Assembly (NCBI GenBank): GCA_030616125.1
Contig: JAUWXZ010000001.1
Span: 1 to 31,635, forward strand
Source: Candidatus Aenigmatarchaeota archaeon
GTDB lineage: Archaea; Aenigmatarchaeota; Aenigmatarchaeia; CG10238-14; SCSR01
Length of the DNA: 31,635 bases
Direction of reading: 5' to 3'
The translations under genes were made by a program, and so were the position numbers. Position 1 is the stretch's first letter, and each line of letters starts with the position of its first letter. Below the pieces are notes generated by a model that saw only the letters and a program-made list of their open reading frames with translations, made no database searches and was not told the origin of the DNA. Below are positions 1 through 11,139 of this stretch, piece by piece.

Positions 1-3000
1 AATGCTTCTGCTCCAACAACTTCAGACACAGTAATACTTACAATAACTATACCCCCAAACAAGACATGGAGCAGAGAACCAGAAAGTTTCCCAATGCTAA
101 CAGTTGGAGCAGGTCAACAAGGAGTTATTGGATATATAACTTTAAACAACACAGGAAATGTTCCAATAACCTTTGAACTATCCTCAGTTGGTAATGGTTC
201 AGCATACATAGGAACAACCCAATCCTCGATAACAGTAGAAAACCAGTCTTCTGGTTCAGTGACAGTTAATTATTCTGCACCTTCACTTTCAGAGTTGGGT
301 GATGATTTGATGAGAATTTATTTTGTCAATATAACAGTAACAAATTCTTCTGCATTACCTCAGCAACTAAATACTTCAACATTCTTAAGAGTTACAAAGT
401 TTTCTGTCAATATAATATCTCCAAACCAAACCAATCCAGTAAGTGTTACAACAGGTGACAATATAACAATCTATACAACTGCAACTTGGGGAGAAGACCC
501 ACAAGGTGAAAATGTTGAATTCAATGTCGCTTTCAATGAAACAGAGTGCCCAATTATAAGTACAAAATTCTTAACAGATCCGACAAAGCCTTATTACTTG
601 GTTTGGGAAATAAACTGTACAGCTCCAGAACTAACAGATGCTAAAAATTACACTCTCTACGTCACAGGAAATTATACAGTTTATGATGCAACTTCAACAG
701 ACTCAGAGGAAAATGCAATTATCTATCCAGATGTCACAAAACCGTTTTTCACAGGAGTTCATGCAGATTCTGTAGAACCAAACAACAACTCAACAATAGA
801 AGTTAATACATCAGATAATGTTGGTGTAGAAGAAGTTATAACCCAAGTGACCTATCCAAACACAACTCATGCGAATTATTCCATGACAAATATATCTCTT
901 ACAACATGGAGATTAGAATTTTCTGACACTTCTGAGGTAGGAAATTATGATTTAGTATTTTATGCAAGAGACGATGAAAATAACTGGAACTCAACTACAG
1001 GCTGGTTTGAAGTTTACTTGCCAATTATATTCAATGGAACAGCAAAAGATGCAGAAGGTAGCCCAGTCCAAATTGAATTTAATTTATATAGAGTTGGAAT
1101 CGATCAAAAAATATTTACTATCCAAACAAATGAAACAGGATTTTATAATGCAACAATAAGCAATAGAAGTTATGATTTGGAGATCAGATCATTTGGACAT
1201 ATAATTGAAACAAACAACACTCCAATAACTCAGTCAGTCCAAGATCCTATTTTGATAGACGAAGTTCCTGTATCAAAAATAGGGGCAGGAGCTTTGAGAG
1301 TAATAGCAATAGAAACAATTCTATCTTATGATTCAGCGAATGTAAGTCTAAACTATTCAGGGACAAGCTATACAAACGAAAACTTATTAGGAATCTATCA
1401 TTGTGCCAATTGGTCATTCTCTGGTCAAAGTTGCAGCTCAAGCTGGAATAGGCTCAATTCTACTCTGATAGGAAACAATTTGGTTTCTGCCAATCCATCA
1501 AGTCTTTCAGCTTTTGTCATTGCTCAATATATTTGTGGAGATAACAAATGTGATTCAACGTATGGAGAATCAAATGCTGTTTGTCCACAAGATTGTCCAG
1601 CAAGTGAGCCAGGTGGCCCAGGTGGACCAGGAGGTCCCAGTGGACCATCTGCACCTCCAGAAAAACCTATACCTCTAGAAGTTTCAACTAATCAGTTAGA
1701 CATTACTTTGCATCCAGGAGAATATCAAATAACTTCAATAGCAATCCAAAACAATTTAGATAAGAAAATTACTGCAGAGCTTTCAGTGGAGGGAAGAATT
1801 TGGGAATTCACACAATTTGAAGAAACTTCAATATCCATACCAGCAAAGAGTAGAGACTATGCAAGAATAAAATTCCATGCTTTGCCAACAACTTTACCTG
1901 GAATTTACACAGGAACAATAATTATTAAAACAGCAGGAGGTACTCAAGAGATTGCTACAATTTTAAGAGTCACGCCTATAAGAGAAGCTTTGCTAGACAT
2001 AAAAGTAGAAACTATAACAAAAGAAGTGATACCAGGACGTCTGTTGACTACTCGATTATACTTATACAATCTTGGGATGACAAAAAAAGTAGATGTTTTT
2101 CTCAACTATACGATTAGCTCAATAGAAACGGGCGAGATAATAGGCATATACCAAGATACTCGCGCAATAGAAACTTCTCTAACATTTGTCAAAAAGTTTG
2201 AAATACCTGAAGATACAAAACTAGGAAAATACATGATAGAAGTTGCAGCATACTATGATTCAAAATTTGCAAGTTCGACCGATTCATTCAGAGTTGTTAA
2301 AACTCCATGGATAATCACAATGCTTTGGGCAATACTCATGAGTGAATTCACTTACATTGCAATTTTGCTTATAATTATTGGCTATTTCGGTTTTAAATTC
2401 TACAAGAGAAAGAGGAAAGAAAAGATAAGAAAAGCAAGGTATGTATTTCCAGTAGACTTCAAGAAATTACCAAGAGGAATAAACGTTGGAAAAATTGCTG
2501 AAACAGATGTTAATGCGTATGTAGATACTGATAAATTAACTCAACACATGATAGTTGCTGGTGGAACTGGTTCTGGAAAAACAGTTGCAGCAATGGTGAT
2601 AGCAGAAGAAGTCTTGAAAAAAGGAATACCCATAATAGTTTTTGATCCAACAGCCCAATGGACAGGCTTCATCAAAAGTTGCAGAGACGAAAAAATGCTT
2701 AGCTTATACAAAAAGTTTGGTCTAAAACCAGAAGATGCCAAAGCATTCAAAGGAAGTATAGTAGACATCACAGACCCTAATACAAAAATTGATATTGAAA
2801 AGTATGTGAAGAAAGGAGAGATAACGATATTCTGTATAAATAAACTTAAACCAGCTCAGCTAGATAACTTTGTTAGAAAAACCATAGATACAATATTTGC
2901 AGTTCCTTGGGAAGAAGCAAGAAAATTAAAATTATTGATTGTTTATGACGAAGTTCACCGCTTACTACCAAAGTATGGAGGGAAAGGAGGATATGTAGCT

Positions 3001-3504
3001 TTGGAGCGCGGTGTAAGAGAATTCAGAAAATGGGGAATTGGTTTGATAATGATTTCTCAAGTATTGTTAGATTTCAGGGGCGCAATTAGAGCTGTAATAG
3101 CTTCCGAGGCCCAATTGAGAACAAAGTACAGTGGAGATATAAATAGAGTGAAAAGTAAGTTCGGGCCAGAATATGCAGCCACCTTACCAAAACTCCGAAC
3201 AGGTAATGTGTTAACACAAAATCCAGAATTTAATGATGGTAAACCATGGTTCATAGAGTTTAGGCCATTACTGCATGACACTTCAAGAATATCAGAAGAA
3301 GATTTGAGAAAATATAAAGAATTTGAAAAAGAAATTTCTGAACTTGAAGATCAAGTAAATAAGTTAAAAGCGAAGAAAATAGAAACTTATGATATAGAGC
3401 TAGAATTGGGTTTGGCAAAAGAAAAAGTAAAACTTGGTCAACTGCGCATGGCAGAAACTTATATTGAATCGATTAAAACTAGGATTAAATCAATCAAAAA
3501 GTGA
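1..3504 (+). CDS. Giant surface glycoprotein (Ig-like repeats, PGF-pre-PGF-like domain, Cys motif, Pro/Gly linker) fused via a single TM helix to a cytoplasmic HerA/DUF87 (FtsK/VirB4-like) ATPase; 5'-partial
   Basis: Frame 1 is open from base 1 (NASAPTTSDTVILQ...), so the ORF-track start at 94 is internal. Hydrophobic segment PWIITMLW...YFGFKFY at ~2305-2403 is followed by KRKRKEK. Walker A GGTGSGKT at 2560-2583, VFDP motif, Walker B LLIVYDEVH at ~2932-2958, then REFRKWGIGLIMISQ typical of HerA/TrwB-like ATPases. Confidence 0.85.
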   Translation, partial: NASAPTTSDTVILTITIPPNKTWSREPESFPMLTVGAGQQGVIGYITLNNTGNVPITFELSSVGNGSAYIGTTQSSITVENQSSGSVTVNYSAPSLSELGDDLMRIYFVNITVTNSSALPQQLNTSTFLRVTKFSVNIISPNQTNPVSVTTGDNITIYTTATWGEDPQGENVEFNVAFNETECPIISTKFLTDPTKPYYLVWEINCTAPELTDAKNYTLYVTGNYTVYDATSTDSEENAIIYPDVTKPFFTGVHADSVEPNNNSTIEVNTSDNVGVEEVITQVTYPNTTHANYSMTNISLTTWRLEFSDTSEVGNYDLVFYARDDENNWNSTTGWFEVYLPIIFNGTAKDAEGSPVQIEFNLYRVGIDQKIFTIQTNETGFYNATISNRSYDLEIRSFGHIIETNNTPITQSVQDPILIDEVPVSKIGAGALRVIAIETILSYDSANVSLNYSGTSYTNENLLGIYHCANWSFSGQSCSSSWNRLNSTLIGNNLVSANPSSLSAFVIAQYICGDNKCDSTYGESNAVCPQDCPASEPGGPGGPGGPSGPSAPPEKPIPLEVSTNQLDITLHPGEYQITSIAIQNNLDKKITAELSVEGRIWEFTQFEETSISIPAKSRDYARIKFHALPTTLPGIYTGTIIIKTAGGTQEIATILRVTPIREALLDIKVETITKEVIPGRLLTTRLYLYNLGMTKKVDVFLNYTISSIETGEIIGIYQDTRAIETSLTFVKKFEIPEDTKLGKYMIEVAAYYDSKFASSTDSFRVVKTPWIITMLWAILMSEFTYIAILLIIIGYFGFKFYKRKRKEKIRKARYVFPVDFKKLPRGINVGKIAETDVNAYVDTDKLTQHMIVAGGTGSGKTVAAMVIAEEVLKKGIPIIVFDPTAQWTGFIKSCRDEKMLSLYKKFGLKPEDAKAFKGSIVDITDPNTKIDIEKYVKKGEITIFCINKLKPAQLDNFVRKTIDTIFAVPWEEARKLKLLIVYDEVHRLLPKYGGKGGYVALERGVREFRKWGIGLIMISQVLLDFRGAIRAVIASEAQLRTKYSGDINRVKSKFGPEYAATLPKLRTGNVLTQNPEFNDGKPWFIEFRPLLHDTSRISEEDLRKYKEFEKEISELEDQVNKLKAKKIETYDIELELGLAKEKVKLGQLRMAETYIESIKTRIKSIKK
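1609..1653 (+). repeat. Imperfect 9-nt tandem repeat encoding a PGG-PGG-PGG-PSG-PSA linker
   Basis: ccaggtggc ccaggtgga ccaggaggt cccagtgga ccatctgca read directly from the sequence. Confidence 0.8.
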
Positions 3505-3508
3505 GTAA

Positions 3509-10266: not shown

Positions 10267-10284
10267 AAATTCAAAAGAAATTAT

Positions 10285-11139
10285 ATGTTTGAGTCAATTT
10301 TTCTAGCCACAGCTTTTATAGGATCTTCTTTAGCTGCTGGATTTGATTTGAAAACAACTGAAATTCCAGATAAAATTCCCCACGTGATGATAGCAATTGC
10401 TTTGATTCTCTATGGAGTTCAATAAATCTTATCCTCAAGCTATAGGCCCATTCTTAATAGTGTAATAGCTGGTGGTTCTTTGTTAGGTTTTGGTTTTTTA
10501 ATGTACTATCTGGGTCAATGGGGAGGAGGAGATGCAAAAATATTAGCTTCTATCGGGTTTTTACTACCCCAACTACCTCAAGGATTTGCTAAATTATTTT
10601 TTCCATTACCGCTTAGTTATTTGATAAATGTTTTTCTTATCGGTGCATTTTACATGCTAGTCTATGCTTTTGTGTTTGCGTTGATGAACAAAAAAATCAT
10701 CCGAAATTTTTTTAAAGATATCAAAGCTTGCAGTAAAACTTTGTTAATAAGCTTGATAGGTTTGTTTATTTTGTTTTTTGGAATTAGTTTGTATTTTTTT
10801 CAATATTTTTATTTCAGTTTAATTTTAGTTCTTTATAATTCTTTCCTACTTTTGGTTTTGGTTATACTTTTGTTTATCATTTTGAGATTTGCCAAGACAG
10901 TAGAAGAAGTTGGATTTAAAAGAAAAATTCCAATTTCAAAATTAAAAGTTGGCGATATTTTAGCTGAATACAAAAAACTGGAAGGAATTACTGAAAAAGA
11001 ATTAAGGAGAATTAAAAAATCAGGAAGAAAAACTGTTAGAATAAAAGAGGGTGTAAGATTTGCCCCAACTTTTCCTTTAGCTTTAATATTTACACTTTTA
11101 TTTGGAGATGTAATTATATGGTTAATTGTTGCTCTTTAG
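10285..11139 (+). pseudogene. A24-family prepilin/preflagellin peptidase interrupted by an in-frame TAA (pseudogene or sequencing error)
   Basis: ATG at 10285 gives MFESIFLATAFIGSSLAAGFDLKTTEIPD (first catalytic Asp region). TAA at 10423-10425. The same frame continues to LGQWGGGDAK (second catalytic Asp) and a C-terminal GVRFAPTFPLALIFTLLFGD. Confidence 0.8.

Follow-up and report, generated by a model that had tools for sequence, protein, structure and literature searches.

The contig JAUWXZ010000001.1 of the Candidatus Aenigmatarchaeota archaeon assembly GCA_030616125.1, analyzed here over its full 31,635 nucleotides (hereafter the window, which is the entire contig G000:C65), opens with a run of seven genes, g1 to g7. 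These encode, in this order, a large surface protein fused to a P-loop ATPase, a cytoplasmic coiled-coil protein, a winged helix-turn-helix (wHTH)-like protein, a second large surface glycoprotein, a MinD-family ATPase, a small Cys-rich protein and a prepilin peptidase. The genome (562 kb in 78 contigs, 90% complete) belongs to a DPANN organism that is found in marine-sediment, cold-seep and hydrothermal metagenomes; a search open to any type of sequencing run yielded DNA-type runs only. All seven genes are located on the forward strand and are tightly packed, and the coordinates of the open reading frames (ORFs) show the 4-nt gap between g1 and g2 and the two ATGA overlaps (at g3/g4 and g4/g5) that were claimed in an earlier note made from the sequence alone. 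Domain calls (Pfam and NCBIfam searches), sequon counts and topology (from hydrophobic segments and N-glycosylation sequons) likewise agree with that note on the fusion of a surface glycoprotein with an ATPase, the cytoplasmic coiled coil, the second glycoprotein and MinD. The gene run exceeds what chance would produce because its order is conserved in relatives, and the comparison of the related loci supports a conserved, functionally linked module that consists of g1, g2, g4 and MinD (g5) and is centered on a protein of the SPEARE type.

The evidence for the module comes from 100 related loci in which ORFs were called and labelled with the window proteins; the 90 non-identical loci were counted. 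Counts out of 55 refer to loci with full flanks and to a distance within 10 kb of g1, and counts out of 81 to the position of g2; the related loci are kin, such that all these counts overstate independence, and the pattern spans many families. The g2 gene lies within three genes downstream of g1, on the same strand, in 80/81 loci and is the immediate next gene in 69 of them; a median of 11 nt separates the two genes. In the phylum of a genome labelled Nanohalarchaeota, g2 directly follows g1 in 10 of 10 loci. At the genome level, hit lists compared by hand show that 149 of the 371 genomes of the phylum encode both g1 and g2, 8 encode g1 only, 14 encode g2 only (8 of these by weak hits) and 200 encode neither. 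A g4-like gene is found within 10 kb of g1 in 42/55 loci and MinD in 27/55, always alongside g4. The order g1-g2-(g3)-g4-MinD is maintained in about 90 distinct loci that represent several DPANN lineages. Thus, g1, g2, g4 and MinD are kept together, in order, across lineages, and g1 and g2 co-occur genome-wide, which supports their functional linkage; neither scattering nor a lack of co-occurrence is seen for these four genes in the neighborhood comparison. The earlier note took the whole run for one machine, and this part of its claim holds for the same four genes on the strength of their order in the ~90 loci; it fails for the peptidase (4/55 loci), the small secreted protein (g6, 0/55 loci, with an ortholog in one close relative) and the wHTH protein (2/55 loci, a single subclade). 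In the nearest syntenic relative, L133, a 194-kb metagenome contig, the whole order of the window is kept, including an intact peptidase gene and the OapABC genes described below. Among the recurrent gene families of the about 90 loci, no polytopic membrane protein is conserved, and no pilin or VirB6-, VirB8- or CedA-like gene was found.

The g1 product is at least 1167 aa long in the window, where its N-terminus is missing; a contig of sequencing run X4 reaches 456 nt upstream of window position 1. The 770-aa ectodomain contains 32 sequons (N-x-S/T), compared to none in the 377 cytoplasmic residues. In Pfam, residues 827-885 match DUF87/HerA, on the Walker A side only (E 7e-13), with weaker matches to FtsK, TrwB and T4SS-DNA_transf. 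A profile built from 24 diverse homologs of the ATPase domain (A1), when compared to PDB sequences, retrieves HerA (4d2i) as the best match, with an E-value of 2.9e-13, followed at a distance by FtsK (4e-3) and DotL (8e-3). The AlphaFold2 model of the domain has a predicted local distance difference test score (pLDDT) of 91, and in a Foldseek search with this model the top 33 matches are all HerA (best 4d2i, E 3.9e-13, template modelling score 0.52), with TcpA at rank 36. Hence, by profile and predicted fold, the g1 motor resembles HerA more than VirB4. The domain looks catalytically intact, given that all 24 homologs keep Walker A, Walker B (DE) and a REFRKWG block unchanged. All NCBIfam models score below their cut-offs on g1: CedD 42.8 bits vs 600, CedB 21.3 vs 700, TraD 27 vs 521, TraC 21 vs 567, and the HerA models 18-37 bits vs 800-970 (NF040937, 36.9 vs 800). 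Likewise, TrwB_AAD_bind reaches 18.2 bits vs 20.5, and the Pfam search finds no match to the CagE_TrbE_VirB N-terminal domain (PF03135). The Pro/Gly linker of g1 (window 1599-1649) shows length polymorphism between populations, and several contigs break there; in run X3, insertions of 8 nt and 1 nt, jointly in frame, follow positions 1635 and 1639.

Homologs of the g1 ATPase are widespread. At least 821 homologs of the domain, with 45-65% identity, occur in proteins that range from about 650 to over 2,000 aa and the names of which refer to Aenigmat-, Micr-, Nano-, Nanohalo-, Alti-, Heimdall- and Thorarchaeota. Homologs are also present in metagenome-assembled genomes (MAGs) labelled Thermococcus, and at least 576 stretches matching this ATPase are found among contigs of one-per-species genomes. 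Within the phylum, the ATPase is present in 157 of the 371 genomes and in 48 of the 98 high-quality ones. Ectodomains differ greatly in length, the shortest having about 300 aa and the longest over 14,000. In L133, g1 encompasses at least 3,023 aa, the closest complete relative consists of 4,658 aa, and open frames that end in a g1-type ATPase reach 14,526 aa in the phylum. In the phylum of the Nanohalarchaeota-labelled MAG, the domain is found in 28 of 42 genomes, with 43-61% identity and open frames of up to 12,145 aa; a homolog named Nanohaloarchaeota (P0106) is 49% identical to the g1 ATPase. The longest frames, of 13,242-14,526 aa, belong to the relatives G334, G107, G296, G295, G169, G274 and G018, and many genomes encode two g1 paralogs, one giant and the other of about 2,200 aa. 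The minimal forms, at about 725 aa, consist only of a signal peptide, the Cys knot, the linker, two beta-sandwich domains, the membrane helix and the ATPase.

The partner encoded by g2 is predicted to be all-helical and soluble. An alignment of 81 orthologs made with MAFFT shows that residues 55-310 are the most conserved, and a helical hairpin motif, R-[QE]-G-x-I-S-x-[KE]-[ST]-Y, occurs in two copies, at about residues 280-310 and 415-440. There is no Pfam, NCBIfam or PDB family match for this protein, and all 46 homologs are annotated as 'hypothetical'. Among the PDB sequences, a g2 profile finds nothing more specific than generic coiled coils (prefoldin and nucleoporins, for instance); Foldseek with the g2 model finds nothing at E <= 0.001, and the protein atlas yields unnamed DPANN clusters only. 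No g2 paralog is found in the genome of the window. In both low-complexity ends of the gene (window 3518-3860 and 4530-4960), numerous contigs from related populations break off or diverge, and run X3 has a 3-nt insertion at 4564.

The second surface protein, g4, is predicted to begin with a signal or anchor helix, to have Ig, MG2 and NEW3 domains and a helical stalk outside the cell, and to cross the membrane at about residues 1199-1237, which leaves a 76-aa tail in the cytoplasm; there are 51 sequons in the ectodomain and none in the tail. In all 45 complete orthologs, the C-terminal membrane segment is present and is followed by 70-120 aa of tail, in which the motif shared with g2 is seen by eye. 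This motif, roughly LExEYxEGxISxExYxxLK, folds into a predicted helix-turn-helix and is the reason why g2 and g4 match each other; small coiled-coil proteins that bear it recur in other loci. In shape, the motif resembles SHOCT; its membership in known families was examined and rejected given that all scores are below the cut-offs (SHOCT, PF09851, 15.9 vs 27 bits; SHOCT_2, PF20612, 15.2 vs 24; GvpG, 21.3 vs 30.6). Directly upstream of the g4-like gene, 22 loci contain a gene for a membrane protein of about 152 aa (e.g., L021, 9020-9478) with sub-threshold matches to DUF3267/M50B-like putative zincins, which has no counterpart in the window.

The MinD-family ATPase g5 matches TIGR01969 of NCBIfam with 232.5 bits (cut-off 201.75) over residues 3-244 and has a C-terminal amphipathic helix. 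In a quick tree of MinD sequences, the copies encoded right after g2 form one clade (10/11; Shimodaira-Hasegawa-like approximate likelihood ratio test, SH-aLRT, 100), and those encoded after g4, including g5, belong to a 35-row group (20/21; support 81), which also holds MinDs that four relatives encode 14-24 kb downstream of g1. Judging from this tree, two separate MinD lineages are linked to the locus, and the g5 lineage is found mostly in such loci. In some relatives, the 22 kb or so that follow the giant gene encode up to three MinD paralogs (e.g., G018:C1, 41203-62084). The second MinD paralog of the window's genome (G000:C28:2077-2803) looks split into two neighboring open frames, 180 and 112 aa long, due to a frameshift or a sequencing error.

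Table 1. Genes of the run and predicted features of g1 (nucleotide positions refer to the window; aa, residues of g1)
Feature	Position	Strand	Basis or remark
g1, SPEARE-type surface protein	1..3504	+	5' end open at contig start
g1 ectodomain, Ig/CARDB-like, predicted to be glycosylated	aa 1 to about 765	+	domains and sequons
g1 Cys-rich knot and Pro/Gly linker	near aa 510-555	+	two beta-sandwich domains after
g1 single membrane segment	aa about 766-797, nt about 2296-2391	+	hydrophobic segment; basic stretch next
g1 cytoplasmic HerA-clade P-loop ATPase	aa about 825-1100	+	profile and fold matches
g1 Walker A (GTGSGKT); Walker B (DE)	aa 856-862; aa 983-984	+	
g1 C-terminal helical tail	aa about 1100-1167	+	
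g2, 502-aa cytoplasmic coiled-coil protein	3509..5017	+	all-helical, without membrane segment
g3, 70-aa winged-HTH-like protein	5073..5285	+	sub-threshold HTH_11/HTH_24 matches
g4, 1313-aa second large surface glycoprotein	5282..9223	+	MG2, Big_3_3, NEW3 matches
g5, 252-aa archaeal MinD-family ATPase	9220..9978	+	TIGR01969 match
g6, 85-aa protein, N-terminal hydrophobic helix and Cys-rich part	10009..10266	+	no family match
g7, A24-type prepilin peptidase, 284 codons	10285..11139	+	partial Peptidase_A24 match; one in-frame TAA

The remaining genes of the run are optional or neighboring ones. Orthologs of g3 are found in 6 loci of one subclade and in L133 (those named are L020/L071, L037, L039, L041 and L133), always between g2 and g4; by sequence, they make up a small and well-conserved family of wHTH proteins, an optional component of the module that is confined to this subclade, where it might function as a local regulator. 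The g6 protein, which has no match in Pfam or NCBIfam, has a single ortholog, in L133, at the same place, with 56% identity and the Cys residues kept; its membership of the module is doubtful.

The gene for the prepilin peptidase, g7, starts at the ATG at 10285 rather than at the listed ORF start at 10480 and includes an in-frame TAA at 10423-10425. The encoded protein is 41-45% identical to orthologs of 271 aa, and both catalytic Asp residues (D21 and D83) are kept. In three other marine-sediment runs, the codon at 10423-10425 encodes Ser (TCA in X2, TCG in X3 and X4), and the ortholog in L133 is intact (285 aa; 16069-16926), so the stop is apparently a strain variant or an assembly error and not a sign of gene decay; the Logan contig of run X1, the run that holds the window best, ends exactly at 10423. 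In the four closest relatives that carry it, the peptidase is encoded on the opposite strand and seven to eight genes beyond MinD, with DUF1512 and ribosomal protein L10e genes in between, and the two T2SSE-type (FlaI/PilB-type) ATPases of the genome are encoded on other contigs (C45 and C34). Given this location beyond unrelated genes, and the FlaI/PilB-type ATPases being encoded elsewhere, the peptidase is, from the gene order, a syntenic neighbor and not a conserved part of the module. A link to type IV pili via the peptidase was considered and rejected, given that the peptidase is not conserved in the locus and that the T2SSE-type ATPases are encoded elsewhere. Just downstream of the locus (window 11772-13235), there is an operon of the ArvABC/OapABC vesicle type, with genes for a GTPase, OapB (PF09846) and OapC (PF09845); an OapABC-type operon occupies the same place in L133 (17336-18820), the Pfam calls having been seen for L133 only.

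The combination of domains in g1 is not new. Hamm et al. (2019; PMC6642349) introduced the name SPEARE, detected such a protein by mass spectrometry, suggested a role in DNA uptake, and reported that the intracellular part is the most conserved and that similar sequences are present in Woese-, Aenigm- and Micrarchaeota and in Altiarchaeales. Reva et al. (2023; PMC10266531) described nanohaloarchaeal giants that start with a signal peptide, continue with about 75 Ig-like domains and, past a transmembrane helix, have a VirB4/TraG-like ATPase in the cytosol and a coiled coil at the end; the authors proposed a secretion 'straw' and noted a second VirB4/TraG-like ATPase encoded by the next gene. 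Roles in contact, invasion and secretion have thus been already proposed for SPEARE (PMC6642349; PMC10266531). With its Ig-rich, adhesin-like ectodomain, one membrane helix on the C-terminal side, P-loop ATPase and helical tail, g1 is, by its predicted domain layout, a SPEARE-type protein of the published architecture, so that the description of the apparatus as undescribed in the earlier note does not apply to its central fusion. The type proteins NAR1_1133 and SVXNc_0300 are matched by description, sequence identity having been measured against the phylum of the Nanohalarchaeota-labelled MAG and against P0106. In contrast to SPEARE, no protease, laminin-G or toxin-like domain is detected by Pfam or NCBIfam in the present part of g1 or in the 4,658-aa relative; Reva et al. 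(2023; PMC10266531) dispute such extra domains in the SPEARE type proteins as well. There are further differences from the two papers, in which neither the coiled-coil partner nor a second surface protein with the common tail motif nor MinD is described. The partner set of g2, g4 and MinD was not found described in the literature searched, which covered few subscription journals. Unlike the loci of Reva et al. (2023), the window locus lacks a second ATPase encoded by the next gene, and the g1 ATPase is nearest to HerA and not to VirB4. In the close relative L015, a soluble 674-aa DUF87/TrwB-like ATPase is encoded two genes past the g4 ortholog (256-2277; G006:C16) and brings to mind the second ATPase of the nanohaloarchaeal loci; a second VirB4/TrwB-like ATPase of this type was not found in the 90%-complete genome of the window.

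Domain, profile and fold searches agree that the set does not match archaella, type IV pili, Ced or HerA-NurA, as the earlier note had stated, nor a type IV secretion system (T4SS). HerA, as found in HerA-NurA and in the Sir2-HerA and DUF4297-HerA defense systems, is the best profile and fold match for g1, which has intact Walker motifs; however, g1 lacks the N-terminal HAS-barrel and carries a membrane helix directly before the ATPase core, and there is no NurA, Sir2 or nuclease neighbor. A canonical 502-aa HerA is encoded elsewhere in the same genome. The coupling proteins and FtsK-like ATPases (TrwB/VirD4/TraD and TcpA) and the Ced ATPases (CedB and CedD) are, like g1, membrane-anchored members of the same superfamily, with weak local matches near Walker A. 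Unlike these, g1 has one membrane helix instead of two or more and a giant ectodomain, and the locus contains no other T4SS or Ced component. Membership of g1 in the Ced, VirB4, coupling-protein, FtsK or HerA-repair families was rejected, with scores far below the cut-offs and no CedA-like gene. No parts of type IV pili or archaella (FlaI/PilB ATPase, FlaJ/TadC platform or pilins) are detected in the window with Pfam and NCBIfam. The coiled-coil proteins (CCPs) that are encoded beside type IV pilus genes in DPANN and for which a role in host interaction has been proposed (Hamm et al. 2023 preprint, 10.1101/2023.02.24.529834) are comparable to g2, by description only, as long DPANN-specific coiled coils; they are defined by CpaF/TadC neighbors, whereas g2 adjoins a SPEARE gene. 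MinD proteins of the Haloferax MinD4 type are another relevant group: g5 is likewise a bona fide archaeal MinD, and the window encodes no MinC, MinE or FtsZ, but, in contrast to them, g5 is encoded inside a surface-protein operon.

Taken together, these observations favor, on balance, the interpretation of positions 1-9978 as a SPEARE-type surface module that forms a positioned cell-contact organelle, with the ATPase working on the cytoplasmic side. Under this scheme, the ATPase domains would assemble, like HerA, into a hexameric ring beneath the membrane, which would bundle six surface fibers; g2 might dock on the ring and tie in the g4 tails through the common helical motif; MinD would place the assembly at a defined site of the membrane, as archaeal MinD homologs such as Haloferax MinD4 do for surface machinery; and the ectodomains would bind the envelope of the partner (host) cell. 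Hydrolysis of ATP would most likely drive assembly, clustering or remodelling on the cytoplasmic side, or hand over a cytoplasmic polymer. Pumping of a substrate through the symbiont's own membrane is probably not involved, because six single helices would make no channel and no polytopic partner is conserved; the pump role that the earlier note assigned to g1 is an inference. Several points weigh against this interpretation. The hexamer and the contacts between g1, g2 and g4 are what we infer, and the common motif stays below the thresholds of SHOCT, SHOCT_2 and GvpG. About half of the genomes of the phylum (all but 48 of the 98 high-quality ones) lack the system, which is therefore not essential for the lifestyle, and MinD is absent within 10 kb in half of the loci; the kinship of these loci also tempers the counts. 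Finally, ATPases of the HerA/FtsK superfamily are typically translocases, which favors a pump.

It is on the last point that the main alternative builds, namely a true trans-envelope conduit, comparable to VirB4, T4SS coupling proteins or the Ced importer of DNA, in which the giant fiber guides DNA or unfolded effector proteins that a HerA/FtsK-type ring pumps between symbiont and host. The g1 ATPase does belong to the ring-translocase superfamily; the succession of a membrane anchor and an ATPase resembles coupling proteins, as do the TcpA match in Foldseek and the weak matches to TrwB and TraD; the second soluble HerA/TrwB-like ATPase beside the cluster in L015 would fit; and both the secretion proposal (PMC10266531) and the DNA uptake idea (PMC6642349) point in this direction. 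A conduit, however, is hard to reconcile with one membrane helix per subunit and the lack of a conserved polytopic membrane protein in about 90 loci, where there is also no VirB6-, VirB8- or CedA-like gene and no pilin; the scores against CedD, CedB, TraD and TraC are far under the cut-offs, and the second ATPase is missing from the window's genome. We therefore regard the conduit as a serious but unlikely alternative. The more specific proposal that the four genes constitute one undescribed, phylum-spanning DPANN host-contact machine, the ring of which moves host-derived DNA or protein at the junction, appears doubtful.

A structural system of the envelope, in which S-layer- or tetrabrachion-like proteins rest on a cytoplasmic coiled-coil skeleton and contribute to shape, integrity or division with no role in host contact, is quite improbable. 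In its favor, the NEW3/CARDB domain, helical stalk and C-terminal anchor of g4 are reminiscent of archaeal S-layer stalk proteins, cytoskeletons classically involve MinD and long coiled-coil proteins as partners, the short g1 forms of about 725 aa lack the long adhesin part, and homologs also occur in MAGs labelled Heimdall-, Thor- and Altiarchaeota and Thermococcus. Nevertheless, absence from about half of the high-quality genomes of the phylum would be odd for a core component, the range of ectodomain lengths is that expected of adhesins under diversifying pressure, and a static layer needs no ATPase ring. That the genes are unrelated neighbors that share an orientation by chance is an accurate description of g6 and the A24 peptidase, which are syntenic neighbors only; for g1, g2, g4 and MinD, it is refuted by the order kept across lineages and by the genome-wide co-occurrence of g1 and g2, such that, as an account of the run, chance is extremely improbable.

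The architecture of g1 was known; what the present analysis adds is the partner set, the Ser reading of the g7 stop, the subclade-specific wHTH protein and the table of co-occurrence at the genome level. DPANN archaea depend on physical contact with their hosts, and the SPEARE-type proteins, which exceed 14,000 residues and are encoded in about half of the genomes of the phylum, are the most conspicuous candidates for contact molecules. With these fixed partners, namely g2 as almost always the next gene, g4 with the matching motif, and MinD, what was one odd protein becomes a defined target of several proteins. The mechanism is narrowed as well, in that no channel-forming partner is conserved and the motor appears nearer to HerA than to VirB4. 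If a ring-driven exchange machine were nonetheless to prove true, it would be the long-sought engine of the exchange between DPANN archaea and their hosts.

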